A DNA stretch of 64,000 nucleotides from Methanosuratincola petrocarbonis. Its GTDB lineage: Archaea; Thermoproteota; Methanomethylicia; Methanomethylicales; Methanomethylicaceae. The position numbers and the translations under genes are program-made. Below the pieces are notes generated by a model. It was not told the origin of the DNA. It ran no database searches and was given only the letters and a program-made list of their open reading frames with translations. The stretch spans positions 442 to 64,441 of the forward strand of contig CP130488.1 of the NCBI GenBank assembly GCA_030522375.1. Reading direction: 5' to 3'. This document shows positions 2,058 to 41,893 of the stretch, piece by piece; position 1 is the first letter of the stretch, and each line of letters begins with the position of its first letter.

Positions 2058-2882
2058 TCAGCCGCCCCTGGTGAGGAGTTCTTCCCTGTTGAAGTGCCTG
2101 ATCCCCAAGACCAGCACTACCGCATTAACCAGCGCGAACAACCCTATCATGAGGAGTATCATAAGCGGCCCGAAGACTATTGCGCCGCCGACCTCTGCGA
2201 AGACGAGCGCCAAGACTGGCGCGATCAGGATGGCGCTCATCTGCTGCGCCTCCCTGTAGCCCTTTACACGGAGCGAAATTATGACCGTGACCCCTATGCC
2301 CGCCAAGGCCACGAGCGGGGTGACTCCGAATATGAAGAGCATCCAGAGCGTATTGGGTAGCAGCAACTCCCCCCCGAAGTGGAGGACCGACGCAAGGTCC
2401 ACGACCAGGCAGTAGACCGCAAAGGAGGCGAAGGTAACGAGGATCGACGGTATGAACGAGACGAGAACCTTCCCCAGAAGCAGCTCCCCGTCCTTGAGCG
2501 GCGTAGCGAGCAGCGCCTCAAGGGTCTTCCTGTCCTTCTCGCCCGCAAAGCTGTCTGAGGCGAGGACGCTGGAGGCCATGATGGGTATTATGAGGAAGAA
2601 CGGGGCGAAGAAGTAGAGGGCGAATACGTAGACCATCGCCTCCTCCGCGCCCATCCCCGCTACCGCTGCCCTGACCTCCGGGGGGAGGTTCTCGAACATT
2701 GGTCCGATGAGCTGGAAAGCCGTGCCTGGCACCCCGACCACTGAGGGGACTAGGACTAGGATCAGCGGCAGCACGGTGGTGAAGACCAGGGGAACGAATA
2801 TGATCGGCGCCAGGACCTGGTAGTTCCTCCTGATCTCCTTCCAGTCCTTCCGGAATACCAGCATCGCGTTCCCGAAATTCAC
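2058..2882 (-). CDS. ABC-2 family transporter permease, a polytopic membrane protein.
   Basis: The 274-aa ORF is hydrophobic with multiple predicted TM helices. It is translationally coupled to the upstream ABC ATPase (start overlaps stop at 2879-2882). Confidence 0.7.
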   Translation of the reverse strand: MNFGNAMLVFRKDWKEIRRNYQVLAPIIFVPLVFTTVLPLILVLVPSVVGVPGTAFQLIGPMFENLPPEVRAAVAGMGAEEAMVYVFALYFFAPFFLIIPIMASSVLASDSFAGEKDRKTLEALLATPLKDGELLLGKVLVSFIPSILVTFASFAVYCLVVDLASVLHFGGELLLPNTLWMLFIFGVTPLVALAGIGVTVIISLRVKGYREAQQMSAILIAPVLALVFAEVGGAIVFGPLMILLMIGLFALVNAVVLVLGIRHFNREELLTRGG

Positions 2883-3818
2883 CCGCGCATCCCCTCAACT
2901 AACCTCAAGTAGGTCTCCTCGAGGGACGGCAGGAACGGCCTCACTGAGAGGACCTGGCCGCCCTCCTCGACGATCCTCCTGACAATGTCCGGGGTGATCA
3001 GCCCGGGATCCCCGGTACTGACGACCAGCTCCCCTCCATCCGCCTCGACCCCGGAGACGCCTGGGACGCCCTCGATCGAACCCACGAAGTCGGAGGCATC
3101 CCCCAGGACCCTGATCTCCACCTTTGCCTCCCCCGCAACCCTCCTCCTGAGCTCCTCAGGCGTGCCCGCGACCTTCAGCTCCCCCCTCAGTATTATCCCT
3201 ACCCTGTTGCAGATCCTCTCTGCATCCTCGAGCCGGTGGGTGGATATCATAATCGTCCTCCTCTCTATCCTGCTCAGCTTGAGTATGAGATCACGGATTA
3301 GCTTCGACGACTCGGGGTCCAGCCCTGACGTCGGCTCGTCCAGGAAGAGCACCGGAGGATCGTGAATGATCGCCCGGGCAATGGCGAGCTTTTGCTTCAT
3401 GCCCTTGGAGAAGACGGAGACCTTCTCCCCCCCTCCTCTCCCAAAGGTCGAAGAACTCGAGCAGCTCCCTTATCCTGGAGTGGATCCTTGCAGCGTTCCC
3501 CATCCCGTAAGCCTTGGCAAAGAACTCGAGGTTCTCCGACGCGGTCAGGCGCTCATAGAGGCTGGGGCTTTCGGTCTGTACGCCCACCAATGCCCTCACT
3601 GCCGAAGGGTCTCTGTTGATATCCTTCCCGAGGATCTCGGCCGTTCCCGAGGTGGGGGATATGATGCACGTGAGCATCCTGATCGTCGTGGTCTTGCCAG
3701 CGCCGTTCGGCCCGAGCAGTCCGAAGACCTCGCCCTCCTGAACCTCCAGGCTGAGCCCGTTCACTGCGGTGAAGGAGTTGAATTTCTTCGTTAGGCTCTG
3801 GGCAACGATCGCACTCAT
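2879..3818 (-). pseudogene. ABC transporter ATP-binding protein (ABC-2/NosF-like) split into two ORFs (3291-3818 and 2879-3400) by a +1 frameshift in a G7 homopolymer (C7 on + strand at 3427-3433).
   Basis: The upstream ORF has a Walker A motif GPNGAGKTT. The downstream ORF carries the ABC signature region (SKGMKQKLAIARAI) and Walker B (VLFLDEPTSGLD). Deleting one G from the run restores the continuous reading ...FDLWERRGEKVSVFSKGMKQKLAIARA..., matching ABC-2 ATPases. This is either a sequencing artefact or a genuine frameshift. Confidence 0.75.
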
Positions 3819-4045
3819 AACAGACCATTAAAAACGATATTACTCGTCAGAATTCTTAACTCTATTGGATTAAAACCCCGATGGTCTAGTTATATGATGT
3901 CGGATTGGGTTTACGCTGAAAGAACCAAAGCGCGCCTCGGCAGCTCGCGAAACCTAATGCCCGCCGTTACTGTGCCCATCAATCATGGCAAGCTTAAAAA
4001 GCAATATTCCTGTGCATACGGTTTTGTGAAGCGAAGTGGAGTGGT

Positions 4046-5362
4046 GTGGTCGGCGTGAGGTCTTGGGTTCTCTCCGAGTTGGCGATGGCGCTCCTCGCAG
4101 TGCTCTCGATACTCCTACTGCTGGTCGACTTTACCTTCCCCCTTGAGCCAGGATGGAGGCAACTCGTTTACCTCGCAGATCTACTGATATGCATCGTCTT
4201 CGCGGTCGACTTCGCCTTAGAGCTCAGGTCCGAAAAGGACAAGCTGGGGTACCTGAAGTGGCACTGGATCGACCTTCTGGCTATCGTGCCAGCCTATGCC
4301 TTTGTCTTTTTCGAGACCATCACGATCATAGGTGCCGGTCTGCGCTCCTTGCGGTTCATCAGGCTGGCTAGGTTCGTCGCAGTCGTGCTCAGGATGAGGA
4401 GGAGCAAAATGCTGTTGAGCGGGGAGAAGCCATCGAAGCGGAGCCTCCTGACTTACGCCTCAGCCGCAAGTCTCGTTTCGGTCTTATATTTGATATTCCT
4501 TCCAGAACTCGAGTCCCCACCCTACGGACAGTACTTAATCGAATCCATCCTCTCCATTCTAATCCTGCTGGTCGCCCTGGTACTCTCGGAGATAATCTAC
4601 GTCCTCCTGGTTTCAAAGATCGATGACCTCCATTCGAGGGTTTCCGTCGGGAGGCTTGTCAAGGTGTTATTCATCCTCCTGGCGATTGCCGCAATAATCT
4701 CCTTCATATTCAAAGAGCTGATCATCTTTGTGACCTCCTTTGGCATCATAGGTCTCATCCTCTCGTACTCGCTTGCCCCGGTGATATCGAACTTCTTCGC
4801 CTGGGTCTACATCAACGTCAGGAAGACCTATATGATCGGCGACAGCGTGAAGATAGGAGACGTCAGGGGGATAGTCACAGACATCGGATATCTCATGACT
4901 ACCCTGGTTGAGATAGGGGATGAGTCCTCCTTCTGGTCTGTGACCGGCAGGATGCTCATCATTCCCAACTCGACCGTCCTATCCGAAATAGTGGCAGTCT
5001 ACGGCAGCCGCCTCTCCCCTGTCAGAGTAGGCTCGGTGACCTTCAACCTCGCCTATGAGAGCGACCTCGGCGCGGTGAAGGAGATCTTAGTGAGGTGCGT
5101 CAGCGAGTACATCCGACCAGAGGTCGAAAGCATGCTAAAGGCGTGCGAGTCGAGCAACTGTGCTCCCATGTTCAGGAACCTCATCGAGGCGGGGCCACGG
5201 GTCATTTTCACGCCAGAGGCGAGCTGGATCAACGTTACGGTCCTCTACCCGTACCCTCCGTCGAAGCTGGTCAGGTCGATGAGCGATCTCACCGAGATCA
5301 TACTGAAGGAAATGAACAAGAACCCGGAGGTCGTGAAGTTCCCGATCGGCAGGAGCCGGTAA
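4046..5362 (+). CDS. MscS-family mechanosensitive channel with an N-terminal voltage-sensor-like (S1-S4 type) domain.
   Basis: The C-terminal half has the MscS beta-domain signature (IGDSVKIGDVRGIVTDIGYLMTTLVEIGDES...MLIIPNSTVLSEIV). The N-terminus has 4 TM segments, the last with regularly spaced basic residues LRSLRFIRLARFVAVVLRMRR, typical of an S4 helix. The true start may be the internal ATG near 4085. Confidence 0.65.
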   Translation: MVGVRSWVLSELAMALLAVLSILLLLVDFTFPLEPGWRQLVYLADLLICIVFAVDFALELRSEKDKLGYLKWHWIDLLAIVPAYAFVFFETITIIGAGLRSLRFIRLARFVAVVLRMRRSKMLLSGEKPSKRSLLTYASAASLVSVLYLIFLPELESPPYGQYLIESILSILILLVALVLSEIIYVLLVSKIDDLHSRVSVGRLVKVLFILLAIAAIISFIFKELIIFVTSFGIIGLILSYSLAPVISNFFAWVYINVRKTYMIGDSVKIGDVRGIVTDIGYLMTTLVEIGDESSFWSVTGRMLIIPNSTVLSEIVAVYGSRLSPVRVGSVTFNLAYESDLGAVKEILVRCVSEYIRPEVESMLKACESSNCAPMFRNLIEAGPRVIFTPEASWINVTVLYPYPPSKLVRSMSDLTEIILKEMNKNPEVVKFPIGRSR

Positions 5363-5449: not shown

Positions 5450-6523
5450 ATGAAGATCGCTGTGATCCTCGGAACCAGGCCCGAGATTATCAAGATGTCG
5501 CCGATCATAAGGGAGCTGGAGAAGAGGGAAATCGATCACTTTGTGCTACACACTGGGCAGCACTACTCGCATAACATGGACGGAGTCTTCTTCGAGGTTC
5601 TCAAGCTGAGCCCGCCGAAATACAACCTGGGAGTCGGATCCGGGACGCACGGCGAGGAGACTGGAAGGATGCTGATCGGTATCGAAAAAATCCTCGCTGA
5701 GGAGAAGCCCAGGTGCGTTCTAGTGGAGGGTGACACAAACACTGTACTCGCGGGAGCTTTGGCTGCCGCCAAGATGCATATCAAAGTCGGGCACGTCGAG
5801 GCGGGGCTGAGGAGCGGTGACATGTCGATGCCGGAGGAGGTGAACCGTATCGTGGCTGACCACATCTCTGACTATCTGTTCGCCCCGACCCAAGTCTCAG
5901 CGCAAAACCTGATCGGTGAAGGCATCGATATCAAGAAGATAGCAGTTACTGGGAACACCGTTGTGGATGCAGTGCAGCAGAGCCTCTTTCTGGTCGCGGG
6001 GAAGGATCCCAAGTCGATATTCGGATTGGACCGTTACTTGCTGGCGACCATCCACCGGCAGGAGAACGCCGACAACCCTATGAGACTGAGGAAGATCATA
6101 GAGGGGCTCAATCTCGTTTCCGAAGAACTCGGTCTGGAAGTGGTATACCCTGCCCACCCGCGTGCACGGAAAAGGCTTAACGATTTCGGGATACCTCTCG
6201 GGGGCAGGATAAGGGCGATCGACCCTGTGGACTACCTGGGATTCCTGGCTTTGGAAAAGGGCGCAGAGCTCATAATGACCGACTCTGGCGGCGTGCAGGA
6301 GGAGGCGTGCATCTTGGGTGTGCCTTGCGTCACCCTGAGGGACAACACTGAGCGCCCGGAGACTCTAGCGGTAGGCGCCAATATCCTTGCGGGTGCAGAC
6401 CCTTTGAGGATGCTCGAATGCGCGAGGGCAATGCTGCCCAGGAGGGGAGGCTGGGATAACCCCTACGGGGACGGGAGGTCAGCTGAGAGGATAGTCGGTA
6501 TTTTGGAAAATCAATACGCTTAG
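5450..6523 (+). CDS. wecB: UDP-N-acetylglucosamine 2-epimerase (non-hydrolysing).
   Basis: The sequence reads MKIAVILGTRPEIIKMSPI...HTGQHYSHNM...NLGVGSGTHGE...TNTVLAGALAAAKM, which are canonical WecB/MnaA motifs. Confidence 0.85.
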   Translation: MKIAVILGTRPEIIKMSPIIRELEKREIDHFVLHTGQHYSHNMDGVFFEVLKLSPPKYNLGVGSGTHGEETGRMLIGIEKILAEEKPRCVLVEGDTNTVLAGALAAAKMHIKVGHVEAGLRSGDMSMPEEVNRIVADHISDYLFAPTQVSAQNLIGEGIDIKKIAVTGNTVVDAVQQSLFLVAGKDPKSIFGLDRYLLATIHRQENADNPMRLRKIIEGLNLVSEELGLEVVYPAHPRARKRLNDFGIPLGGRIRAIDPVDYLGFLALEKGAELIMTDSGGVQEEACILGVPCVTLRDNTERPETLAVGANILAGADPLRMLECARAMLPRRGGWDNPYGDGRSAERIVGILENQYA

Positions 6524-27981: not shown

Positions 27982-28953
27982 ATGGACGTTGGCGTAATTG
28001 GCGTAGGTGTGATGGGCAAAAACCATCTAAGAATATACTCTGAAATGAGAGGAGTTGGCGAAGTCTATGCTTACGATGTTGACAAGAATTCCTTGATGAA
28101 GGCTTGCAATGTAACTAATGCAACTCCATGCGACAGCCTGAAATCATTATTGAGGAAAGTTGATGCAGTAAGCATATGCGTCCCTACAAAATATCATTTC
28201 GAAACCGCGAAGAAAGTCTTTGAGTCCAACATCAATTTTCTGCTCGAAAAGCCAGTCACTATGACATTAAAAGAAGGTCTTGAGTTAGTGAAAATGGCAG
28301 AAAGGCTTAGCCATGTTGTTGTAGGGGTAGGGCACATAGAACGCTTTAATCCCATAGTGTCTGAAATAAAGAGCCTTATCGATCAGCCAAAATTAATTGA
28401 GATAAAGCGCCATAATCCGGCATCATCAAGAATAACCGATTCGGACATAACGTCCGATTTGATGATCCATGATATCGACATCATTTGGAATTACTTATTC
28501 GAGAAAAAACAAGAAAAACAACTCCATTCCGTTGGAAACCAGGACGTCAGGAAAGTTGTCGCAGAGTTTGACGACTGCATAGTATCTCTCTCCGCTAGCC
28601 GAATCTCTTGCAAAAAAATCAGAAACATAGTAGTCGAGTGCGACAAATTTACTATTGAGGGCGACTTTATGACTCAGGAGGTCTACCTTTATAAGAAGCC
28701 TGGCAAGTACCAGCAGGATACTACAAAATACACGCAGGAAAACATCATTGAAAAAGTGCTAATCAACAAAGTCGAACCTCTGAAAGAAGAGCTTAAGGTA
28801 TTTTTAGATTCCGTAAGAAATAGCAAAGCGTTCCCTGTGACATTGGAACAAGGCGTATCAAACATTTATTTGGCGAAGAAAATAGAGGGCGGTTCATCGT
28901 TCGCAAATGAAGTTATTCCAAGCCAAAGCCTCATAACAAAGTGCTTTGACTAA
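27982..28953 (+). CDS. Gfo/Idh/MocA-family NAD-dependent oxidoreductase, a WbpB-like UDP-sugar 3-dehydrogenase candidate.
   Basis: The N-terminus MDVGVIGVGVMGKNHLRIYSEM is a Rossmann motif, followed by the EKP motif (FLLEKPV). SD AGGAGTGA lies 8-14 nt upstream of the ATG. This is the first gene of the low-GC block, which starts abruptly at ~27970. Confidence 0.75.
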   Translation: MDVGVIGVGVMGKNHLRIYSEMRGVGEVYAYDVDKNSLMKACNVTNATPCDSLKSLLRKVDAVSICVPTKYHFETAKKVFESNINFLLEKPVTMTLKEGLELVKMAERLSHVVVGVGHIERFNPIVSEIKSLIDQPKLIEIKRHNPASSRITDSDITSDLMIHDIDIIWNYLFEKKQEKQLHSVGNQDVRKVVAEFDDCIVSLSASRISCKKIRNIVVECDKFTIEGDFMTQEVYLYKKPGKYQQDTTKYTQENIIEKVLINKVEPLKEELKVFLDSVRNSKAFPVTLEQGVSNIYLAKKIEGGSSFANEVIPSQSLITKCFD

Positions 28954-28987
28954 TAATTCTATGAGTATACAGAATGGGGAAATTCTA

Positions 28988-30169
28988 ATGGACATTTCAG
29001 TAATAGGCTTAGGAAAAGCAGGGCTGCCTCTTGCTGCAATAATTGCAGACAGTGGCTTTAATGTAACTGGAATAGACCTTGACAGCAAAAAGTGCGAGCT
29101 GATAAACTCTGGTGAAAATCCAATACCCGAAGAACCGGGTCTAGAATCTCTTATAAAAAAATATGGCGGCAAGTCGCTTCGTGCATTTACAGATTACTGT
29201 TCGGCGTCAAATTGTAAGGCATACATAATAATCGTTCCACTTTTCATCAATGAGTTTCGGGAGCCTGACTTCAGGACTCTGAAGGGTGCCGTGAAGAGCG
29301 TAGGAAAGATGCTGAAGAAAGGAGACTTGGTGGTTGTGGAAACCACAGTGCCTCCTCTGACCACAGAGGAACTTGTACTCCGCTGGCTGGAGGAGGAGAG
29401 TGGCATGCATTTAGGCGAATTCTATCTTGCTCACTCGCCAGAAAGAATTATGAGCGGCAATTGCATATCCCGCCTCCGCGAATTTCCGAAGGTTATTGGT
29501 GGCGTTGACAAGAAAAGCGGAATTGTGGCTTTCGAAATGTATAGGAAGTTCATACCAAATCTACATTTAGTCTCCTCGGCTAGGGTGGCTGAGTTCGTAA
29601 AAAATATCGAAGGTTGCTATAGAGATGTAAACATCGCGCTTGCAAATGAACTCTACAAAATAGCCGAAGAGCTGGGCATTGAATTCTACGAATCGCGGGA
29701 GCATGCTAACCACGAGTATTGCCACTTGCTTTTGCCGTCAACGGGCGTAGGGGGGCACTGCATCCCAGTTTATCCTTGGTTTCTGATAAAAGAGATGGAG
29801 CGAAAAGGAAAGGACGAGTTTGCCGACTTGCTCCGGAAATCAAGGGAAATAAACGATAAAATGATTGAATATTGGGCAAATAAAATCGTCATTGCGTGCT
29901 TAAAGATCGATAAACCGTTGAACAAAATCACGATATGCATAAAGGGAATTACTTACCGAAAAGGGGTCAAGGAGCTTTTCCACAGCCGGAACCTGGCACT
30001 CGCAAAACTTTTGGCAGACAAGGGTTTCAGGATCTCCATCTATGACGAAATGTTCACCAGAGAAGAAATTGAAAAGCTTGGCCTTGCATGGGGCGACCCA
30101 GATTTAGCCGACTTGACATTCGATCCATTTGATTTGAAGATTAAACTGAATGCGCAAAAAAATGTATAA
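28988..30169 (+). CDS. UDP-sugar 6-dehydrogenase family protein, a WbpA/WecC-like UDP-N-acetylhexosamine dehydrogenase candidate.
   Basis: The N-terminus MDISVIGLGKAGLPLAAIIADSGFNVTGIDLD is NAD-binding. The catalytic Cys region is STGVGGHCIPVYPWF. An alternative ATG lies at 28961. Confidence 0.75.
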   Translation: MDISVIGLGKAGLPLAAIIADSGFNVTGIDLDSKKCELINSGENPIPEEPGLESLIKKYGGKSLRAFTDYCSASNCKAYIIIVPLFINEFREPDFRTLKGAVKSVGKMLKKGDLVVVETTVPPLTTEELVLRWLEEESGMHLGEFYLAHSPERIMSGNCISRLREFPKVIGGVDKKSGIVAFEMYRKFIPNLHLVSSARVAEFVKNIEGCYRDVNIALANELYKIAEELGIEFYESREHANHEYCHLLLPSTGVGGHCIPVYPWFLIKEMERKGKDEFADLLRKSREINDKMIEYWANKIVIACLKIDKPLNKITICIKGITYRKGVKELFHSRNLALAKLLADKGFRISIYDEMFTREEIEKLGLAWGDPDLADLTFDPFDLKIKLNAQKNV

Positions 30170-30914
30170 AGGTTTCAGAATCGGGGTTTCGGTACCGGCT
30201 TATAACGAAGAAAATTTGATCTTGAAAACTCTCCAAGGGATCCCCAGTTTTGTAGACAAAATCTATGTCGTAGATGATGCCTCAACGGACAGAACCTCCG
30301 AAAAAGTAAAAAACTACGCCGATAGCCGAGTCGTTTTATTGAAACACAGCAGGAATAAGGGGGTAGGCGGTGCCATCGTCACTGCATGGAAGATGGGGTT
30401 GAACGAGGTTGACATTCTTGCAGTGATGGCAGGTGATAACCAGATGGATCCTGGCGATCTTCCTTCTCTCTTGGACCCAATCGTGGAAGGGAAAGTGGAC
30501 TTCACAAAGGGTAACCGGTTTATGAAAAAATATGATTTGAAAATGAGTGCTTGGAGGCGGTTTGGAACAGCGGTTTTGACGGTTTTGAATAAAATAGCGA
30601 CAGGCTATTGGAATATCGGTGACCCCCAAAATGGGTATGTTGCCATTTCTTCCTCCGCACTAAAGAAGATTGATTTAGACGAACTTTACAAGGGATATGC
30701 TTTTGAGAATGACCTGTTGTTGAAGGCTAAGATAGCAGGACTGAGGGTTGTAAGCGTTCCCGTTACGATAAGATACAAAATAGGGGAACAATCGAAAATT
30801 AAATATTCCAAATTCATAGCAAAAATATCTTGGTATATGCTGAGGTCATTCTTATGGCGCATCTATGTCCAGCATTTCAGGAATCTTAAAACTCGGGAAT
30901 ACGATATCATTTAA
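30150..30914 (+). CDS. Family 2 glycosyltransferase (Dpm1-like, polyprenyl-phosphate sugar transferase type).
   Basis: The N-terminus IGVSVPAYNEENLILKTL is followed by VVDDASTDRT (a DxD-type motif) and DAD-like residues. The protein is 254 aa. Confidence 0.75.
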   Translation: MRKKMYKGFRIGVSVPAYNEENLILKTLQGIPSFVDKIYVVDDASTDRTSEKVKNYADSRVVLLKHSRNKGVGGAIVTAWKMGLNEVDILAVMAGDNQMDPGDLPSLLDPIVEGKVDFTKGNRFMKKYDLKMSAWRRFGTAVLTVLNKIATGYWNIGDPQNGYVAISSSALKKIDLDELYKGYAFENDLLLKAKIAGLRVVSVPVTIRYKIGEQSKIKYSKFIAKISWYMLRSFLWRIYVQHFRNLKTREYDII

Positions 30915-30939
30915 AAAATAAAAGCATAATGATCGACCA

Positions 30940-32043
30940 ATGAAACGAATAGCAATCTTTGTGAACACCCCAGCACAGCTGCATTTCTATCGAAACATAG
31001 CCAAGAGGCTTGAGCAAAAAGGAAACCAAGTCAATATGCTGTTCAGGGATTACGGAGAGACTCTGCGATTAGCTCAAGAATTTGGTTTTAATCCACTAAT
31101 CTTCTCAAAACAGCGACCCACTTCGCTACAAAAAATGATTTTTTTCCCAGTCGACATTATGCGTTCGGTTAGGATTTTTCGCGGGCAAAATCCAGATGTC
31201 GTAACAGGATTCGGCATCGACAGCGTATATGCTTCCGCATTTGCTGGATCTAAAAGCATTGTCTTCAGTGATTCCGAGCCTAGATCGCATCGTCTACTGC
31301 ATTTTCAATACGATCTTTTCAAACCCTTAACGGATGTGATTATTACGCCTTCTTCATTCTTGGATGACCTGGGGAGCAAACATATCCGAGTGAACAGCTA
31401 TAAGGAACTCGCCTACTTGCACCCAAATTGCTTTCAACCAAGCAACGACATATTCGATCTCTTGGGCATTTCAAGAAACGAAGACTTCGCTATCCTTAGA
31501 TTCAATGCTTTCGATGCTGTGCACGATCTACAAATCTCAGGCTTCAATTCAGAGCAAAAAGTGAAGCTCGTTGAAACTCTTGACCGTCACGCCCATGTCT
31601 TCGTCTCTGCCGAAGGGAGCGTTCCAAAGCGAATCGAAAAGAACGTCCTCAAAATCCCCAAGAGAAGAATACATGACCTCCTATACTACGCCAAGCTTTT
31701 CGTTACCGATACGCAAACTATGGCTACAGAGGCAGCCATTCTTGGCACGCCCACAATCCGAAGCAACAATTTTGTAGACGAAAAAAGGGAAATGGGTAAC
31801 TTCCTTGAGCTAGAAAAAAAATACGGGCTTCTGTTTAGTATTTGCGATAGAAATAGAGCGATTTCCTTGGCAGAGGAATTGATAAAGTATGATGGTCTGA
31901 AAAAGGAATGGACAAGAAGGCGCGAGGTTTTATTGAAGGATAAAATTGACATTTCGTCGTTCATGACTTGGTTTATCGAAAACTATCCCGAAAGCTGCAA
32001 GGAAATCAAATCCGATTCGAAAATCCAGTTCAAATTCAGGTAA
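30940..32043 (+). CDS. DUF354-family protein, a predicted glycosyltransferase/epimerase-fold enzyme.
   Basis: The N-terminus MKRIAIFVNTPAQLHFYRNIAKRLEQKGNQVNMLFRDYGETLRLAQEFGF matches the DUF354 N-terminal pattern. The 367-aa length also fits. Confidence 0.55.
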   Translation: MKRIAIFVNTPAQLHFYRNIAKRLEQKGNQVNMLFRDYGETLRLAQEFGFNPLIFSKQRPTSLQKMIFFPVDIMRSVRIFRGQNPDVVTGFGIDSVYASAFAGSKSIVFSDSEPRSHRLLHFQYDLFKPLTDVIITPSSFLDDLGSKHIRVNSYKELAYLHPNCFQPSNDIFDLLGISRNEDFAILRFNAFDAVHDLQISGFNSEQKVKLVETLDRHAHVFVSAEGSVPKRIEKNVLKIPKRRIHDLLYYAKLFVTDTQTMATEAAILGTPTIRSNNFVDEKREMGNFLELEKKYGLLFSICDRNRAISLAEELIKYDGLKKEWTRRREVLLKDKIDISSFMTWFIENYPESCKEIKSDSKIQFKFR

Positions 32044-32044
32044 A

Positions 32045-33124
32045 ATGCGGGTTGCGACTGTGGTAGGGGCACGCCCTCAATTCATCAAGATGGCACCCTT
32101 GTCAAGGGAGCTCCGAAAATATTTCGAGGAGATCGTAATACACACAGGTCAGCACTACGATTACGAGATGGACCGCATATTCTTCGAACAGCTAAACATA
32201 CCTCCCCCAGATTACAACCTGGGCGTTGGGTCAGGCTTTCATGGCTACCAAACAGGTGAGATGCTCAAACGAATAGAGGATGTGTTGATAAAGGAAAGCC
32301 CAGATCTGGTCATTGTCTATGGCGACACCAACTCGACGCTGGCAGGTGCCCTTGCGGCCGCGAAGCTTCGAATAAGGGTAGCGCATGTAGAGGCTGGCTT
32401 GAGGTGTTTTGATAGAACGGTTCCTGAGGAAGTAAATAGGGTTCTTACAGATCATATTAGTGATTTGCTATTCGTTCCTACTGAGCGTGCCGTAAAAAAC
32501 CTCTACAACGAGGGAATAAAAAACGGTGTTTATCTGACAGGCGACGTCATGCTTGACGCTTTATTGCATAACATAACAATCGCTGAAAAAGAATCTAAAA
32601 TAATTCAAGAACTTGGCGTTGAGGCGAAATCTTATTTGCTTGTAACAGTTCATAGAGCAGAAAATACTGATAATAGAGCAAGACTTGAAAACATAATTGA
32701 ATGCTTGGTAAAGTGCAAAAGAAAAACAATCTTCCCGATCCATCCGAGGACTAAAGCATTTTTAGAAAAGTATAGCCTGCTTGATAAACTAAAAAACGCG
32801 GATCACATAATCTTGACGAAACCCCTAAGCTATTTTGACATGCTTGTTCTGGAAAAAAACGCAAGACAAATCATAACAGATTCAGGCGGCGTCCAAAAGG
32901 AGGCTTACTCTTTTAAAACGCCATGCATAACTCTTAGAAAAGTGACTGAGTGGCCAGAGACAGTTGAAGACGGGTTGAACATCTTAGTGGGTGATGATTA
33001 CGACCTCTTATTGGATATGATTTGGAAATTTGAGCCAGTCGGCGGGACTTACAGCTTCAGGTTTGGACATGGGGACGCAAGCTCAAGGGTTGTGCAAATT
33101 ATGAAAAATATTTTATGCGCTTGA
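32045..33124 (+). CDS. wecB: UDP-N-acetylglucosamine 2-epimerase, second copy and island paralog of 5450-6523.
   Basis: Motifs MRVATVVGARPQFIKMAPL...HTGQHYDYEMD...NLGVGSGFHG...TNSTLAGALAAAKL are present. SD AGGT lies upstream. Confidence 0.85.
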   Translation: MRVATVVGARPQFIKMAPLSRELRKYFEEIVIHTGQHYDYEMDRIFFEQLNIPPPDYNLGVGSGFHGYQTGEMLKRIEDVLIKESPDLVIVYGDTNSTLAGALAAAKLRIRVAHVEAGLRCFDRTVPEEVNRVLTDHISDLLFVPTERAVKNLYNEGIKNGVYLTGDVMLDALLHNITIAEKESKIIQELGVEAKSYLLVTVHRAENTDNRARLENIIECLVKCKRKTIFPIHPRTKAFLEKYSLLDKLKNADHIILTKPLSYFDMLVLEKNARQIITDSGGVQKEAYSFKTPCITLRKVTEWPETVEDGLNILVGDDYDLLLDMIWKFEPVGGTYSFRFGHGDASSRVVQIMKNILCA

Positions 33125-33305
33125 CTAAGCGTAATTTTATGCGCGCGCAATTGTATGCGATTTGCCAAGATGAAAAGGTTAAAGCTATTGAGTCTCAAAA
33201 TACTTCAGTACTCTATACTCTTTGTGTATAGATTGGTTTTCAAATAAAAATGTTTGATATAAAACTAAACTATGATTATAGTAATAAATAGTAAATAATT
33301 GGAAT

Positions 33306-34511
33306 ATGGGGTGTGTTTATAAAAGCAAAATTATTAAGAAATCTATTTATAATTTATATAATTATGTAAAAAAAGAAAATCATATTGGATTTGATCCTTA
33401 TGATGGCTTAAGCGGAAAAATGCAACGATATTATAATATAAAATATTTAAATATAATTTTATTACAATTTAATTTATATTCATTTGTAAATTTACGAAAA
33501 ATACTTGGCATAAAAAAGGGTTGTGCAAACAAGGCTTTAGCCATTTTTTCAAGATCCTACTTTTTACTATATCTAATTACAAAAGAAAAGGAATTTCTTG
33601 ATAATGCAATTAAATTGTTCGATATTTTAAAGGAAAGAAATCTTTTAAATAATAAAGATAATTATACGTGCTCAAGTCATTATTTTACATACCTTGCACC
33701 AGGCCATTATTTGACCACCTCTGTACCTGACATTATCTGTACCACGGAGTTTGTTAAATCTTCAGTTTTGGCATATGAAGTATTGGGAAAGTCTCAATAC
33801 CTTGAATATGCAGAAAAGGGAATTAATTACTTATTTTACAATTTATTGACTTCAAAAACTGGATATGGTTGTTACTTTAAGTACACTCCATATGAGGAAA
33901 CTAAAATTGTACTGAATGCGTCAGCTGTGGCGCTAGATGCTTTTTCTTATTTTTACAAGCATAGCCAAAATAAGAAATTTTTAGAGCTTGGGAAAAAAGT
34001 TGCAAGAACTCTTCTGCATTACCAGCGTGAAGATGGTGCATGGCCTTATTCTATTTACTTTAAAAATAATTTGCAATATTGGCAGGTCGACTTCCATCAA
34101 GGCTACATTATTGATGGGTTGATACATTTTTTTGATTGCGTGGCAGAATCAGATCTAACCTCAAAAATGAAGACAGCACTAGGAAAAGGAATTGATTTTT
34201 ACTGTCAAAAGCAATACCGAGGCAATGGGACTTTCTATTATAGGTATCCTATTAAGTACCCAATTGACATTCATAATCAAGCGCAAGGCATAATTACATT
34301 TGCCAATCTCTTTGACTTTACTGGAGATTATAAATACTTAGAACTCGCTGAAAGAGTTGCATTATATACTATTGAAAAAATGCAAGATGATGAAGGATAC
34401 TTCTACACGCACAAATATCCTTTATTTACGAATAAAATACCTTACATGCGTTGGGGACAGGCGTGGATGATGTTGGCTTTAACAAATCTTCTAATGGCAC
34501 TAAAAAAATGA
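33306..34511 (+). CDS. Hypothetical protein (401 aa) in the glycan island, possibly a glycan-modifying enzyme. It lies in the lowest-GC part of the island (~27 % GC).
   Basis: The ORF is long, uninterrupted and soluble. No motif could be assigned with confidence. Its context suggests a glycan-related function. Confidence 0.4.
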   Translation: MGCVYKSKIIKKSIYNLYNYVKKENHIGFDPYDGLSGKMQRYYNIKYLNIILLQFNLYSFVNLRKILGIKKGCANKALAIFSRSYFLLYLITKEKEFLDNAIKLFDILKERNLLNNKDNYTCSSHYFTYLAPGHYLTTSVPDIICTTEFVKSSVLAYEVLGKSQYLEYAEKGINYLFYNLLTSKTGYGCYFKYTPYEETKIVLNASAVALDAFSYFYKHSQNKKFLELGKKVARTLLHYQREDGAWPYSIYFKNNLQYWQVDFHQGYIIDGLIHFFDCVAESDLTSKMKTALGKGIDFYCQKQYRGNGTFYYRYPIKYPIDIHNQAQGIITFANLFDFTGDYKYLELAERVALYTIEKMQDDEGYFYTHKYPLFTNKIPYMRWGQAWMMLALTNLLMALKK

Positions 34512-35593
34512 AAGTCTTAATGATCGCACCAATTGGAAAAGCAGGTGGTGTTTCGACTCATTCTCAAGAATTGGTGAGAGAACTTCGGGGTTTAGGGATA
34601 ATGGTTGAAGTCTATAATGTAACGACTTCTATAAAACCAAGATTTATTGCTAATTTTATTAAATTTTATAAAAGAAGTTTCGGGGTCTTCATCAATATTT
34701 TCATTCGTAGGGGTTTTGATATAGTTCATGTACAAGCATCCGGTCCTATGGGTGGTTTCTTGCCTGCAATAAGTGCAGCAATTGTTAGAAAAATCGTAAA
34801 TTTTCCTTTAGTAGTGACTTTTCATTATTCTCGAACATCTGAATTTATTATAAAAAATAAATTTTTTAAATTTGTAATGGAATCATCAAAATTTTTTATT
34901 GTTGTATCTAAAAATCAGAAAAATATCATAATTAATGAAATAAATTATATAGAAAAAGTTAAAGTTATATCAAATGGTTTCAATCCAAAAAATCTTTTCC
35001 CAATTGACTGCATTTTTGCAAGGAAATATTTGAGTCTACCCTATAATAAAAAAGTAATTTTTCATGTTAGTAATCTTCTTCCTGTAAAAGGTCAAAAATA
35101 TTTAATTATAGGAATGAAGAAGATTTTAGAAAAACGCAAAGATGTGCTGCTTTTTATCGGTGGGAAAGGCCCATTAAAACACGAGCTTCAAAAACAAATT
35201 ATCGCACTGAAACTTGAAGATAACATTAAGCTTTTGGGTTTCATTCCAGATGATAAACTGGCACTATGGATGAATGCTGCCGATCTGTTTGTTTTACCTA
35301 GCCTGAGTGAGGGCAACCCCACAGTCATGTTCGAAAGCCTCGGTGTCGGCCTCCCCTTCGTGGGCACAAGGGTCGGCGGAGTGCCTGAGATAATAACCTC
35401 GGACGAATACGGCCTCCTGGCTGAGCCAGGCAACCCCGACGACCTGGCGGAGAAGATATTGGTCGCTCTTGAGAAGGAATGGGACCGTGAGAAGATTCGT
35501 GATTACGCCAGGCAGTTCACTTGGGAAAACATAGCCAAGCAGCTGATTAAAGTGTACGAGGAAGTCCTGAGCAAAAGTCCTTCTGGTGAGTAA
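34508..35593 (+). CDS. Family 4 (GT-B) glycosyltransferase. The last ~100 codons switch to host-like high GC.
   Basis: The ATG overlaps the previous stop (ATGA). A C-terminal EX7E-like region reads SLSEGNPTVMFESLGVGLPFVGTRVGGVPEII. A GC jump occurs near 35290. Confidence 0.75.
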   Translation: MKVLMIAPIGKAGGVSTHSQELVRELRGLGIMVEVYNVTTSIKPRFIANFIKFYKRSFGVFINIFIRRGFDIVHVQASGPMGGFLPAISAAIVRKIVNFPLVVTFHYSRTSEFIIKNKFFKFVMESSKFFIVVSKNQKNIIINEINYIEKVKVISNGFNPKNLFPIDCIFARKYLSLPYNKKVIFHVSNLLPVKGQKYLIIGMKKILEKRKDVLLFIGGKGPLKHELQKQIIALKLEDNIKLLGFIPDDKLALWMNAADLFVLPSLSEGNPTVMFESLGVGLPFVGTRVGGVPEIITSDEYGLLAEPGNPDDLAEKILVALEKEWDREKIRDYARQFTWENIAKQLIKVYEEVLSKSPSGE

Positions 35594-36290
35594 GATGCTC
35601 TTTATATCGAAAAAAGCAAAGGTGTCAGGGTCAATCGAGGGGGAAGCAGTGGTATTGGGCCCCTCCGAGGTGGGCGGTGGATCCGTGATAGGGAACAACG
35701 TGGTCATCGGCTATCCCATCCGTAGAAAGATCCTCCAGGTGCCCAATGCATCGTTTCTGGAGTACGACGCCGCAAGTTCTGGCGCAAAGGTAGGTCCCCG
35801 CTGCATAGTCAGATCCAACTCCACGATATACGAAGGCTCTTCGCTTGAGGAGGCGGTTGAGCTCGGGCACGGAGTCCTTGTGAGGGAAAAATGCGAGATC
35901 GGCGCAGGAGCTAGGATAGGGACTTTTGCTGTAGTCGACGGGAGCGTCTGCATTGGGAGCAGGTGCAGCATCCAGACTGGAGTCTACTTGCCGCCCGGTA
36001 CTGTGGTTGGCTCCGATGTGTTCATGGGTCCTTACGTGACCGTGACCAACGACCGATACCCTCCTTCGCCGAAGACCTCCGGAGTTGTGATCGAGAGCGG
36101 CGCCGTGATAGGGAGCCGTGCCGTCCTGATCGCCGGGATCCGTGTTGGCTCCGGAGCTGTTGTAGGGGCGGGCGCTGTGGTGACGAGGGATGTGCCCCCG
36201 GGCGACGTAGTTCTGGGCGTACCCGCGAGGAGGGTAATGGGAAGGGACGAATATGACAGGAAGCAAAAGGACTTCGTTTCCTTAAAGTAG
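35586..36290 (+). CDS. Left-handed beta-helix (hexapeptide-repeat) acyltransferase, a WbpD/PglD-like sugar N-acetyltransferase candidate.
   Basis: Repeated [LIV]G-x4 hexapeptides occur (VIGNNVVIG, RIGTFAVVDGSVCIGSRCSI, VIGSRAVLIAGIRVGSGAVVGAGAVV). The gene is high GC. Confidence 0.75.
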   Translation: MSKMLFISKKAKVSGSIEGEAVVLGPSEVGGGSVIGNNVVIGYPIRRKILQVPNASFLEYDAASSGAKVGPRCIVRSNSTIYEGSSLEEAVELGHGVLVREKCEIGAGARIGTFAVVDGSVCIGSRCSIQTGVYLPPGTVVGSDVFMGPYVTVTNDRYPPSPKTSGVVIESGAVIGSRAVLIAGIRVGSGAVVGAGAVVTRDVPPGDVVLGVPARRVMGRDEYDRKQKDFVSLK

Positions 36291-36305
36291 CAGGGTGGAA
36301 TTCGT

Positions 36306-37406
36306 ATGATACCGATAAACAAGCCGATTCTGGGGAAGGAAGAGATCGAGGCTGTCGCGAAGGTGATCGAGAGCGGCGCCCTCACCAACCCCGCCCCCGA
36401 GGGGGGGTCAGTCTGCAGGGCGTTCGAGCAGGAGCTTGCCTCTTACTGCAATGCGAAGCACGCTGTCGCATGCAACTCCGGTACCGCCGCGCTCCAGATG
36501 GCGCTTATGGCTGCTGGAGTCGGTCCAGGGGACGAGGTGATCGTCCCGTCCTTCACATTCGTGGCGACCGCAAGCTCCGTGCTCCTGGTTGGCGCCAGGC
36601 CGGTCTTTGTCGACATCGATCCGGATACATACAATATGGACCCAGAGCAATTCAGGAGGGCGATCACCCCGAGGACGAAGGCAGTGGTCCCCGTTGACCT
36701 GTACGGGCTGCCCGCTGCCATGGACGAGATAAAAGAGATCGCCCGCCAAAGTGGCATAATTGTCATAGAGGATGCCTGCCAGGCGCAAGGGGCTTCCTAC
36801 AAGGGCAAGATGGCGGGGACGCTTGGGGACATGGGGTGCTTCAGCTTCTACCCCGGGAAGGTAATGACTACGGGGGAGGGCGGGGCTGTGATCACGGACG
36901 ACGATGAGCTGGCAGAGCGCCTCCGCAGGATTAGGACCCACGGGCAGGTCAAGGGTTACGACTCCGTGATGCTCGGGGGAAACTTCAGGATGACCGAGAT
37001 GGCGGCTGCGATAGGCAGAGTCCAGCTAAAGCGCCTCCCGGGCTTCCTCTCTGTTAGGGAAAAGAACGCGGCGCAGCTTCTGGAGCTGCTTGATGGATCG
37101 AGCCTAAAACTGCCTGAGGTGCCTGGTAGATACAAGCACAACTGGTATTTGTTCACCGTAAAATGCAAAACAAATAAAGAAAGAGAATCCCTAAAATCCT
37201 CGCTGCTCGAGGCGGGTTTTGGAGTTGCCGTCTACTATCCAATTCCGTTGCACAAAATTCCTTTATTTAATGATTATTCGGATGATTTTATCAAAACTGC
37301 TGAACGCTGTTCTGAAGATGTTCTTTCGTTGCCAGTTAATCCTGCAGTTAGTTATGATGATATTATTAATATGGTTAATATAGTAAAATTTAAAGTAATA
37401 TTGTAA
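36306..37406 (+). CDS. DegT/DnrJ/EryC1/StrS-family PLP-dependent sugar aminotransferase (WbpE-like). The 3' ~250 nt revert to AT-rich composition.
   Basis: Family motifs are MIPINKPILGKEEIEAVAKVIESGAL and FSFYPGKVMTTGEGGAV. A PLP lysine context is present. SD GGGTGGA lies upstream. Confidence 0.8.
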   Translation: MIPINKPILGKEEIEAVAKVIESGALTNPAPEGGSVCRAFEQELASYCNAKHAVACNSGTAALQMALMAAGVGPGDEVIVPSFTFVATASSVLLVGARPVFVDIDPDTYNMDPEQFRRAITPRTKAVVPVDLYGLPAAMDEIKEIARQSGIIVIEDACQAQGASYKGKMAGTLGDMGCFSFYPGKVMTTGEGGAVITDDDELAERLRRIRTHGQVKGYDSVMLGGNFRMTEMAAAIGRVQLKRLPGFLSVREKNAAQLLELLDGSSLKLPEVPGRYKHNWYLFTVKCKTNKERESLKSSLLEAGFGVAVYYPIPLHKIPLFNDYSDDFIKTAERCSEDVLSLPVNPAVSYDDIINMVNIVKFKVIL

Positions 37407-37428
37407 TAAAAATTTTTAATTAATAAAT

Positions 37429-39163: not shown

Positions 39164-39164
39164 T

Positions 39165-40277: not shown

Positions 40278-40279
40278 AT

Positions 40280-41377: not shown

Positions 41378-41893
41378 ATTTAGCCACTTCCGTTCCACTA
41401 GTCTATTTTCCTTTAAGTTAAAAATCCGAATTACATCAATATAGAATGCCTAGTTTTGGTGTGATTTGACATTTAATGTGACATAACATCTTCCTTGGAG
41501 AAAAGTTTTCAGCCGCAAAGACTAAGAAATCGTTCCCCCTCCTTTGAATCTGGAATTCCTTTTTATGTAAAGCTTGGATGAACCACTCAGTTTAGGCATT
41601 GGCTTTACTTGGGTATTAGATGCGCCCCCTTCGTCTAGCGAACTATTTTTCGGGATCGAAAGAACAGCTAGGAAAATCAATCAAAACGAAAGATAAGGTG
41701 CCAATGTATGAAATCATCTGCAGTTCGTGGATGCGGTGTTGAGAACTTGGCAACTATCTCGAAACGCACATTTCCACTCGGAACGAAATCAGGGGCATGG
41801 ACGGATCAAATCACATCTGTAGGATCGAATTTACTTTAGAGGCATCGGTTATAAAGCCCGGCCCACAAAACCTTCTGCAATCAGGTGCCCGCG

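Follow-up and report, generated by a model that had tools for sequence, protein, structure and literature searches.

Can a voltage-sensor domain (VSD) and an MscS-type channel be carried on one archaeal polypeptide, and if so, what would such a sensor do to such a pore? The question is raised by an open reading frame of Methanosuratincola petrocarbonis, whose genus is represented in culture by an isolate (PMC12244365). The gene is located at positions 4046..5362 of the window, i.e., the whole stretch of 64,000 nucleotides that was analyzed (all features given below lie on its plus strand), and the preliminary description of this DNA had read it as an MscS channel preceded by four transmembrane (TM) helices resembling a voltage sensor.

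Gene Structure and Domain Organization of the Fusion Protein

According to the open reading frame list, the gene begins with GTG and codes for a protein of 438 aa, in which the Pfam domains Ion_trans and MS_channel_2nd were both found. An alternative GTG start at 4055 would yield a protein of 435 aa and fits the M[RK]S beginning of most homologs. A TATA-like element, GCTTAAAAAGC (3992..4002), identified by reading the sequence, is present ∼45–55 nt 5′ of both candidate GTG codons and represents a putative archaeal promoter. It is probable that the fusion gene has its own promoter owing to its divergent orientation relative to the upstream ABC-transporter genes. The fusion loci of Methanosuratincola matched the gene order of the window, and the neighbors were shared within the genus; no conserved operon partner was found among the compared loci. 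In the case of a 47%-identical ortholog, only the upstream ABC-type ATPase gene was common to its neighborhood and that of Methanosuratincola.

The protein was found to contain eight TM helices, i.e., the four helices of the VSD followed by four more and not three, the latter comprising an extra helix (residues 132–155) and MscS TM1–TM3 (residues 161–259). The loop charges, inspected visually in the sequence along with the segment table, were distributed in a way compatible with an N-in/C-in orientation. The analysis showed that one polypeptide harbors a complete KvAP-type VSD (S1–S4), a short basic linker, an extra TM helix, and an MscS core (TM1–TM3 pore, beta domain, and a predicted alpha/beta domain). 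The possibility that the N-terminus represents the ordinary TM1–TM3 of MscS was ruled out as these helices map to residues 161–259. The full-length monomer modeled with AF2 showed a pLDDT of 66 and a pTM of 0.34, a confidence too low for placing the VSD against the pore. The least confident parts of both this model and that of the VSD were S3b–S4 and the linker, with block means of 36–53 (full-length) and 49–68 (VSD model).

The N-Terminal Region Is Homologous to the Voltage Sensor of KvAP

The VSD spans residues 8–126 (4067..4423), with S1 at ∼9–30, S2 at ∼38–61, S3 at ∼72–90, and S4 at ∼97–120, in agreement with the four N-terminal helices and the periodic arginines of the fourth that had been described earlier. 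A profile check of residues 1–150 against PF00520 (Ion_trans) gave 40 bits as compared to a cut-off of 25, and the KvAP VSD (1ORS) was matched with an E-value of 1.5e-10. Structure modeling and fold search predicted a four-helix antiparallel bundle. Among the matches listed, Kv channels were the nearest non-fusion relatives of the VSD.

The S4 helix (4334..4405) contains R100, R103, R106, R109, R116, and R119, with a spacing of 3, 3, 3, 7, and 3, in addition to R118. The spacing is the same as what we take to be that of KvAP R117/120/123/126/133/K136 (numbering from the 1ORS alignment and the literature). The six arginines were invariant in the 14 aligned family members and at the 12 genome loci, and the same positions were occupied by Arg in 43–53 of the 53 Kv relatives. 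In one divergent member, P0042, Arg was retained at just three of the periodic S4 positions. The counter-charge position in S1 is occupied by D28 (4127–4129), while the counter-charge/charge-transfer region of S2–S3 (4157..4315) includes D45, F52, D55, and F56 in S2, D76 in S3a, as well as P82 and E90. Alignment with KvAP equated D28 with E45, D45 with D62, F52 with L69, D55 with D72, D76 with E93, P82 with P99, and E90 with E107. The acidic residues D/E28, D45, D55, and D/E76 along with F52, which is present at the position of the charge-transfer center, were kept in all 13 fusion members, except for one Gly at position 55, and P82 was invariant in the fusion family. The counter-charges, F52, and P82 were likewise conserved in the 53 Kv relatives. 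Two positions deviated: position 59 is E/D/S in the fusions vs. Arg in 51 of the 53 Kv sequences, whereas at position 112 the fusions have Ala in place of the large hydrophobic residue of the Kv relatives. Hence, the sensor has possibly been retuned.

The arginine-periodic string quoted in the preliminary description, LRSLRFIRLARFVAVVLRMRR (residues 99–119), is by itself a weak criterion. When the protein was shuffled, a run of four or more (R/K)xx units was obtained in 574 of 20,000 shuffles (2.9%). Reliance on this chance-prone RxxR motif was therefore dropped, and homology was used as evidence instead. The identity as a voltage sensor is upheld by sequence homology, fold, and the retention of the canonical charge positions. 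Judging from the alignments, the resemblance of the VSD to KvAP is not due to chance, and the VSD is apparently functional.

The C-Terminal Half Contains an MscS Core

The assignment of the C-terminal half to MscS held up on both profile and structural comparison. The MscS beta domain (PF00924, MS_channel_2nd), comprising residues 246–315 (4781..4990), scored 42–43.5 bits, the cut-off being 20.2. Residues 168–353 were matched to E. coli MscS (2VV5) with an E-value of 9e-8. Foldseek analysis of the whole model retrieved MscS-family structures only (E ∼1e-11), the matches spanning ∼280 columns with low TM-scores. Alignment to residues 35–211 of E. coli MscS (2VV5) placed TM1 at residues 161–187, TM2 at 195–221, and the pore-lining TM3a/b at 223–259 (together 4526..4822). 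A TM1–TM2 hairpin is thus followed by a TM3 that has a Gly/Ala-rich TM3a, a hydrophobic gate, and a kink between TM3a and TM3b. The gate motif G233-x-x-G236-L237 is followed by Y241, and P245 is located at the kink. The corresponding E. coli MscS residues are G101 (G233), G104 (G236), L105 (L237), L109 (Y241), G113 (P245), N117 (N249), and G133 (G265). S231, G233, G236, L237, S240, S242, L243, P245, S248, and N249 were invariant in the family. The cytoplasmic alpha/beta domain at the C-terminus (residues 336–438; 5051..5359) was divergent from that of E. coli MscS, its match to PF21082 being weak (E = 0.069; 14 bits, under the 21-bit cut-off), and was modeled with a pLDDT of 74–94 for residues 331–430, a confident alpha/beta domain being predicted at residues 336–425.

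The K+ selectivity filter T[VI]G[YF]G was found in none of the 13 fusion members vs. 49 of the 53 Kv relatives, and PF07885 was absent in the Pfam analysis of the protein. Owing to the absence of an S5–P–S6 filter, the protein is not a Kv channel, though its sensor comes from one.

The Linker and the Extra Helix Are Weakly Conserved

The VSD and the MscS core are connected by a basic cytoplasmic S4–TM5 linker and the extra helix TM5. The linker, identified by alignment at residues 120–131 (SKMLLSGEKPSK; 4403..4438), varies in length from 12 to 17 residues, with a pLDDT below 50, and was the least conserved segment, with a mean identity of 0.42. TM5 (residues 132–155; 4439..4510), predicted as a helix at ∼131–156, runs in-to-out and joins the VSD to TM1 of MscS. 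Between the two deep branches of the family, linker and TM5 were the least conserved, with an identity of 0.32. The S4–S5 linker of Kv channels, on the other hand, is strongly conserved and transmits force. The weak conservation of linker and TM5 thus counts against a tight, Kv-like mechanical coupling.

TM5 could originate from either the "TM0" of MscS or the S5 of Kv channels. The best scores of an HMM of the TM5 segment were 7.8 bits among the MscS-only proteins and 0.6 bits among the Kv proteins, both of them nonsignificant. The closest MscS-only relatives among the best 150 of 9661 matches (P0044, P0047, and P0053), whose alignments begin at profile positions 119–129, possess a fourth N-terminal TM helix. 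With four TM helices in its nearest MscS-only relatives, the evidence leans toward an MscS origin.

The Fusion Is Conserved Across an Archaeal Class

A survey of homologs identified the same fusion in no fewer than 33 clusters (90% identity), whose sequences come from independent assemblies of NCBI, JGI, ENA, and Logan. The genomes of 12 GTDB species also carry it. Full-length orthologs shared 45–89% identity. Among the matches listed, all carriers belonged to the Methanomethylicia or close relatives, indicating a small and phylogenetically narrow family. A profile search of 1.84 billion representatives revealed no other two-domain match among the best 150 of 9661, and a Pfam scan of six long MscS proteins (449–482 aa) detected no Ion_trans at E ≤ 0.01. 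The absence of PF00924 from the matches of the VSD-profile search is uninformative since the full-length fusions themselves are absent from them. Weaker-scoring, independent VSD–MscS fusions may exist in other lineages. The surmise that the architecture is not well characterized agrees with the full-text literature searched, in which no description of a VSD–MscS fusion was found, subscription-only papers being outside its scope.

Could the gene be an artifact, i.e., two adjacent genes (one for a Kv fragment, the other for MscS) joined by an assembly or frameshift error, or an ordinary MscS with TM helices rich in Arg by coincidence? The RxxR periodicity arising by chance in ∼3% of shuffles would favor such a reading, as would the separate VSD and MscS open reading frames of some metagenomic copies (L008, L089, and L090). 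The split copies, however, occupy syntenic loci, and the neighbors of L090 are also fragmented, which indicates sequencing error. The intact fusion is present in dozens of independent assemblies, including the complete chromosome CP186953.1, where the reading frame is likewise uninterrupted; a K+ filter was found in none of 13 members, and the TM1–TM3 of MscS are assigned to another part of the protein. The VSD showed a dN/dS of 0.07–0.18, with the MscS parts in the same range, and an identity of 0.51 between the two deep branches vs. 0.46–0.56 for the MscS parts. As the fusion has been conserved under purifying selection across an archaeal class, it is not an assembly chimera, and we give practically no credence to an artifact. 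Four proteins considered in the course of the survey were set aside: P0190, P0191, and P0192 come from syntenic loci and are copies split by a frameshift, not genuine stand-alone VSD genes, and P0193 is a separate S1–S5 protein unrelated to MscS and not a split form.

Possible Role of the Voltage Sensor in Channel Gating

By analogy with characterized channels, we consider it somewhat probable that the protein is an MscS-type valve whose gating by tension is biased by the membrane potential through seven peripheral VSDs. As in all solved MscS-family channels, it would assemble as a heptamer with one central pore lined by TM3. The seven VSDs would be placed on the lipid-facing periphery, at the location of the extra helices of the "sensor paddle" in YnaI and MscK. 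As in Kv channels, S4 would respond to the membrane potential by moving, and its movement would be relayed via the linker, TM5, and the TM1–TM2 paddle, or via shared annular lipid, altering the tension needed for opening or inactivation of the pore. The result would be an osmotic/ionic release valve responding to both membrane potential and tension, in line with the coupling of potential to osmotic release that was suggested in the preliminary description. The sign of the voltage dependence is not predictable from sequence. In E. coli MscS, inactivation depends on voltage, whereas activation is practically independent of it (gating charge, ∼+0.8; PMC2217495). Since E. coli MscS already shows this voltage-dependent inactivation, an added sensor could plausibly act on the gating cycle of the family.

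The balance between the two stimuli could also be shifted toward voltage, such that the protein is a voltage-gated channel without meaningful mechanosensitivity, in which the seven VSDs form the primary gate of a large pore of weak selectivity, contributed by the MscS core. In a methanogen with a limited energy supply, for example, such a channel could be a relief valve opened by extreme potentials. In favor of this reading, nothing is missing from the VSD signature, and its conservation equals that of genuine Kv channels. The second gate ring consists of aromatic residues (Y/F241 at L109) and the kink carries a proline (P245 at G113), suggesting that the gating energetics differ from those of E. 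coli MscS. A precedent is also available, as the MscS superfamily includes members that are not mechanosensitive, e.g., the bCNG channels as cited in one source (PMC6833973). The tension-sensing TM1–TM2 paddle and TM3, however, are all present and conserved, and the poorly conserved linker speaks against a strong obligatory coupling. We therefore regard gating primarily by voltage as unlikely. The only difference from the valve biased by membrane potential is how much each stimulus contributes.

At the other extreme, the VSD may be a co-opted structural module without a voltage role, which extends the sensor paddle with lipid-facing helices, as in YnaI and MscK, and tunes tension sensitivity or membrane localization. 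In favor of this reading, extra N-terminal TM helices are common in the MscS family (the core could be aligned with YnaI and MscK), the fourth helix already exists in the closest MscS-only relatives among the best 150 of 9661 matches, position 59 has changed from Arg to an acidic residue, and position 112 is invariably Ala. Buried charges are, however, costly unless used, and six buried arginines, four buried acidic residues, and the charge-transfer-center Phe have been kept invariant in lineages only 45% identical at a dN/dS of ∼0.1, which makes a purely structural module more doubtful still. It is highly improbable that the VSD acts independently of the MscS pore, either by conducting on its own (Hv1-like proton or omega-current pore) or by signaling to another partner. 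Its closest relatives among the matches listed are ordinary Kv sensors and not Hv1, and F52, the hydrophobic plug, is intact along with all four of the outer arginines, residues that block VSD conduction in Kv sensors; as to a partner, no conserved neighboring gene hinting at one was found in the compared loci. Considering these alternatives, the tension-gated valve biased by membrane potential is the reading we favor. Quite possibly, though we advance it tentatively, it would represent a voltage-gated channel with a seven-fold pore other than a P-loop pore, the first such channel in nature, in which seven KvAP-type sensors are coupled to one MscS-type pore through lipid or paddle in place of the canonical S4–S5 linker lever, and potential and tension are integrated in a single molecule.

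VSDs are seen as portable modules, yet to our knowledge their natural effectors are few: tetrameric P-loop pores, the VSP phosphatase, a single family of transporters, and the proton path of the domain itself. MscS is the textbook tension-gated valve, and ever since its first structure there has been debate on how it depends on voltage. The conserved fusion poses the testable question of whether the motion of S4 gates a heptameric, lipid-gated pore, and through which coupling. If so, it would constitute a fourth natural class of VSD effector after P-loop pores, phosphatases, and transporters, a natural experiment on a VSD gating a pore of mismatched symmetry with a bearing on electromechanical coupling and force-from-lipid gating, and a scaffold for engineering large-conductance, voltage-opened pores. 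It could also explain how an energy-limited methanogen avoids a collapse of its membrane potential through an emergency valve. The protein is tractable, being small and from a thermophile, and the standard patch-clamp assay for MscS in E. coli spheroplasts is suited to it.

Comparison With Known Voltage-Sensor and MscS Proteins

KvAP-type Kv channels (PF00520 and PF07885; 1ORS, 1ORQ, 2A0L, and 6UWM) have a homologous S1–S4, and uncultured Kv channels of ∼270 aa share 36–48% identity with the S1–S4 of the fusion. The S4 charge pattern, the counter-charges, the charge-transfer-center Phe, and the S3 proline are Kv-like. Unlike Kv channels, the fusion has neither an S5–P–S6 pore nor a TVGYG filter, its effector is an MscS core (presumably heptameric) and not a tetrameric K+ pore, and position 59 is acidic instead of Arg. 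It departs from the Kv sequence right after the S4-terminal RMRR, where the S4–S5 linker helix of Kv channels begins. VSDs with effectors other than a P-loop pore are found in Ci-VSP (a phosphatase), Hv1 (a VSD-only proton channel), and SLC9C1 (a Na+/H+ exchanger). We know of none among these or plant Hv1 that joins a VSD to an MscS-type pore or a seven-fold assembly. The plant Hv1 is mechanically primed (PMC10657467).

On the side of the MscS family (TC 1.A.23; PF00924), E. coli MscS and its larger paralogs YnaI and MscK share with the fusion TM1–TM3, the GxxGL motif, N249 (N117), and the beta domain, and a cytoplasmic alpha/beta domain is predicted for the fusion as well. As compared to E. 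coli MscS, the fusion has Y/F at L109, Pro at G113, and a divergent C-terminal domain (PF21082 under cut-off). YnaI and MscK likewise contain additional TM helices before TM1, whereas the extra helices of the fusion form a recognizable VSD and not anonymous paddle helices. The same evolutionary logic, by which the MscS pore is conserved and a regulatory module is added to it, is seen in the bCNG channels (MscS core and a cyclic-nucleotide-binding domain, PF00027), representatives of which were present among the distant matches (P0271, P0273, and P0275). In bCNG channels the module is soluble, C-terminal, and ligand-binding, whereas in the fusion it is membrane-embedded, N-terminal, and a putative sensor of the electric field.

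Domain architecture and topology

The ORF at 4046..5362 (+) is unbroken and encodes 438 amino acids from a GTG start. Most annotated orthologs begin with M[RK]S, which matches a second in-frame GTG at 4055; a TATA-like GCTTAAAAAGC was read in the sequence at 3992-4002. It is practically certain that this one polypeptide carries a complete Kv-type voltage-sensor domain (VSD, S1-S4) and a complete MscS core. Both Pfam calls exceeded the curated cut-offs of their families: Ion_trans (PF00520) matched residues 11-148 with 40 bits (cut-off 25) when the N-terminal 150 residues were scanned alone, and MS_channel_2nd (PF00924) matched residues 246-315 with 42 bits (cut-off 20.2). Among all PDB sequences, residues 8-126 matched the isolated VSD of the K+ channel KvAP (1ORS, 2KYH) and full-length KvAP (1ORQ, 2A0L, 6UWM) with E=1.5e-10 to 4e-10, and residues 168-353 matched E. 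coli MscS (2VV5 and others, E ~1e-7) and YnaI. The preliminary description of a C-terminal MscS half joined to a voltage-sensor-like domain of four transmembrane (TM) helices was thus borne out. Alignment to E. coli MscS placed its TM1, TM2, and TM3 at residues 161-259 and gave the pore equivalences G233=G101, G236=G104, L237=L105, Y241=L109, P245=G113, N249=N117, and G265=G133. As the MscS helices map there, the reading of the N-terminus as ordinary MscS TM1-TM3 with incidental basic residues, against which profile and structure searches had been proposed, was excluded.

The N-terminal half agreed with a VSD in every sequence and fold feature considered, and the P-loop pore that defines a Kv channel was absent from the protein. 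The MscS half showed the testable features of its family apart from the C-terminal domain, for which the Pfam match was weak. Pfam revealed no hidden VSD in six long MscS proteins (449-482 aa). The string of Arg/Lys at every third position, earlier taken as the hallmark of S4, lies at residues 99-119; the pattern is present and the VSD homology solid, but the motif by itself is only mildly unusual, as a run of at least four (R/K)xx repeats arose in 574 of 20000 shuffles of the protein. The case therefore rests on homology and not on the motif.

Secondary-structure prediction and hydropathy indicated eight TM helices: S1 (residues ~9-30), S2 (~38-61), S3 (~72-90), S4 (~97-120), an extra helix TM5 (132-155), and the MscS helices TM1 (161-187), TM2 (195-221), and TM3 (223-259). 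As read from the sequence, basic loops (59-72, 116-133, and 190-201) alternate with acidic or neutral ones (30-37, 90-97, and 154-162), a pattern that fits an N-in/C-in topology, the sole one suiting both the VSD (N-in) and the MscS core (C-in). A model of residues 1-160, built from a 69-sequence alignment, reached a pLDDT of 70.8 (80-88 in S1-S3a, 54-68 in S3b-S4) and a pTM of 0.58; Foldseek ranked 1ORS, 2KYH, and 6UWM on top, with the weak E-values usual for helical membrane domains. The full-length monomer model was poor (pLDDT 66, pTM 0.34) and unfit for placing the VSD relative to the pore; it retrieved MscS-family structures only (Foldseek, E ~1e-11).

Conservation of the sensor residues

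In the PDB-search alignment to KvAP, whose residue numbers come partly from the literature and partly from the alignment, the S1 acid D28 corresponds to E45, the S2 outer acid D45 to D62, F52 at the charge-transfer-centre position (Phe in Shaker-type channels) to L69, the S2 inner acid D55 to D72, the S3a acid D76 to E93, the S3 proline P82 to P99, and E90 at the end of S3b to E107. The S4 basic residues R100, R103, R106, R109, R116, and R119 show a 3,3,3,7,3 spacing identical to that of KvAP R117/R120/R123/R126/R133/K136, HMMER's own register being one turn off through an alignment choice within the gapped S3-S4 loop.

When 13 fusion proteins were compared with 53 Kv relatives, the sensor positions were kept in both groups; Arg at all six S4 positions, F52, D45, and P82 were each present in 13/13 fusion proteins. 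The S4 consensus is essentially the same in the fusion family (GLRSLRxxRLxRFxAVxxRMRR) and the Kv relatives (GLRSLRLIRVIRVxxxxARMRR). Systematic differences were few: the fusion family has E/D/S at position 59 versus R in 51/53 Kv relatives (KvAP R76), E at position 90 versus G in 41/53, and A at position 112 versus L/F/I. After RMRR, where the S4-S5 linker helix of Kv channels begins, the fusion family sequence diverges completely. Codon 59 (4220-4222) lies at the cytoplasmic end of S2, and its charge reversal, present in all fusion proteins, coincides with the emergence of a strongly basic S4-TM5 linker; speculatively, the two may form a new, fusion-specific intramolecular salt-bridge pair.

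Distribution, selection, and origin

The proposed survey of homologs recovered the same architecture in at least 33 clusters at 90% identity among 5.8 billion proteins (NCBI, JGI, ENA, and Logan assemblies), 45-100% identical to the window protein and named Ca. Methanosuratincola, Methanomethylicaceae, Methanomethylicia, or Verstraetearchaeota. Partial proteins with 99-100% identity carry the truncated source name Ca. Methanosuratincola 'petr…', taken as M. petrocarbonis. In a pattern-seeded, non-exhaustive scan of 185,579 species-representative genomes, 12 loci matched over nearly full length, all in Methanomethylicia/Methanomethylicota or in MAGs loosely labelled Thermoproteota or Nitrososphaerota, and including the complete chromosome of Ca. 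M. verstraetei; the remaining matches covered the MscS half only. An exhaustive hmmsearch of 1.84 billion representatives at 50% identity with the full-length family profile gave 9661 matches, and among the best 150 both halves were matched by three proteins (P0032, the truncated P0033, and the divergent P0042). The other 147 covered profile positions ~115-439 (MscS proteins) or ~1-153; the latter were mostly ~270-aa proteins, P0068, P0090, P0152, and P0178 being Kv channels with TVGYGD filters. As far as the matches listed show, the distribution is narrow.

Compared with seven orthologs, the window gene gave Nei-Gojobori dN/dS values of 0.07-0.18 in the VSD, 0.08-0.23 in linker plus TM5, 0.04-0.26 in TM1-TM3, and 0.07-0.14 in the cytoplasmic part; identity between two deep family branches was 0.51, 0.32, and 0.46-0.56 for the VSD, linker plus TM5, and MscS parts, respectively. 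Hence, selection holds the VSD as strongly as the channel core.

Two loci of the Thermoproteota MAG JZ_65_OP_bin_38 (L014 and L017) carry fusion copies that share 83% and 71% identity with the window protein, either paralogs or the product of a mixed bin. On three metagenomic contigs (L008 4001-5307; L089 3001-4113; L090 3001-4017), the gene is split at the syntenic position into a VSD ORF and an MscS ORF. Because the neighbouring genes on L090 are fragmented as well, the splits probably stem from sequencing frameshifts; genuine pseudogenisation may nevertheless have occurred in some populations.

Among the matches listed, the nearest relatives of the VSD are Kv channels of uncultured prokaryotes, such as a Chloroflexota 'ion transporter' (P0068), and those of the MscS half are MscS-only proteins of ~300-365 aa. 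Some of the latter (P0044, P0047, and P0053) contain four TM helices with the N-terminus in the cytoplasm, and their alignments start at profile positions 119-129; this favours a putative junction of S1-S4 with a four-TM MscS. The alternative, S1-S5 with a three-TM MscS, is equally permissible in topology, and P0193 is a natural example of an S1-S5-only protein. For residues 118-160, a segment HMM scored insignificantly against both MscS-only (<=7.8 bits) and Kv proteins (<=0.6 bits). P0193 (160 aa; L006 4001-4483 / L007 1830-2312), found on four contigs beside unrelated genes (HEAT-repeat protein, DUF3795), comprises a Kv-type VSD, S4-S5 linker, and S5, stops directly after S5 without a pore, and could be either a Kv channel cut short or a VSD protein in its own right. 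In P0153 (313 aa; 2.3-kb JGI metagenome contig), a closely related VSD (profile E=2e-21; S4 RSLRLVRVVIVFARMRR) is fused to the regulatory domains NRD1/2 (PF01995, 191 bits) of NrpR, the archaeal nitrogen repressor sensing 2-oxoglutarate; it is a further unreported VSD-effector fusion, encountered only once.

Genomic context

At the Methanosuratincola locus, the fusion gene is flanked on one side by a divergently transcribed pair of ABC-transporter genes and on the other by a UDP-GlcNAc 2-epimerase gene; a P-type cation ATPase is encoded close by. The 47%-identical ortholog again has an ABC-type ATPase gene upstream, of a different kind and orientation, and its other neighbours (12TM_1 membrane protein and PvlArgDC genes) are not those of Methanosuratincola. 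No conserved partner gene was evident between these loci, and the protein looks self-contained. The upstream ABC-transporter ATPase (2879-3818, -) consists of two overlapping ORFs, 3291..3818 (Walker A) and 2879..3400 (signature and Walker B), and its Ca. M. subterraneus ortholog is one intact 312-aa gene; the split is a frameshift around 3291-3400, which marks a pseudogene or stems from an error in sequencing. A 14-kb block at ~28000-42000 (G+C 0.34-0.47 versus 0.55-0.67 in the flanks) is a glycan-biosynthesis cluster with several GT1/GT2/GT4 glycosyltransferases, UDP-glucose/GDP-mannose dehydrogenase, DegT aminotransferase, GFO/IDH oxidoreductase, and a second UDP-GlcNAc 2-epimerase (32045-33124; the first at 5450-6523), and resembles a surface-polysaccharide island gained by horizontal transfer. 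ARAGORN found no tRNA genes within the 64-kb window.

Proposed mechanism and comparison with known channels

The topology is consistent, residues of both the sensor and the pore are conserved, and purifying selection acts on the gene as a whole. A voltage-modulated valve is the mechanism we somewhat favour. The protein would assemble as a heptamer, as in each solved MscS-family channel among the PDB and Foldseek matches, with seven VSDs at the periphery, where YnaI and MscK bear extra helices. S4 would respond to voltage by moving, and transmission of this motion to the TM1-TM2 paddle would let membrane potential bias tension-dependent opening or inactivation. In E. coli MscS, tension activation is essentially voltage-independent (gating charge about +0.8) and inactivation strongly voltage-dependent (PMC2217495); the gating cycle of the family is thus already weakly field-coupled, and a dedicated sensor could amplify that coupling.

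A primarily voltage-gated pore, to which the intact set of S4 arginines might point, is unlikely; the paddle and pore helices by which MscS senses tension are present and conserved. Co-option of the VSD as a purely structural module, comparable to the added helices of YnaI and MscK, is quite improbable, the charged sensor positions being those kept in the Kv relatives. A VSD acting independently of the channel is very improbable, its closest relatives being ordinary Kv sensors. The chief reservation about the valve mechanism concerns the S4-TM5 linker: short and basic, it differs in length among members and shows poor conservation, unlike the conserved lever of Kv channels; coupling may therefore use helix packing or annular lipid, or be loose. 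The probability of an artefact is negligible; split copies occur on three contigs, and the intact architecture recurs across the 33 clusters. Since Methanosuratincola petrocarbonis LWZ-6 has been isolated (PMC12244365) and standard MscS assays apply, voltage modulation is a directly testable hypothesis.

In agreement with the earlier view that the architecture is not well characterised, no description of a natural VSD-MscS fusion was found in the freely available full-text literature searched. The databases name the fusion proteins only 'mechanosensitive ion channel', and precomputed Pfam shows both domains for some members. Among known MscS variants, YnaI and MscK carry extra TM helices that are anonymous, and bCNG channels, examples of which were among the homologs found, add soluble ligand-binding domains. 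The known non-canonical VSD proteins act on a phosphatase or a transporter, or have no coupled effector. In plant Hv1, voltage gating goes together with mechanical priming (PMC10657467). Beside these systems, the window protein is a predicted channel of the MscS family whose sensor module belongs to a new class.
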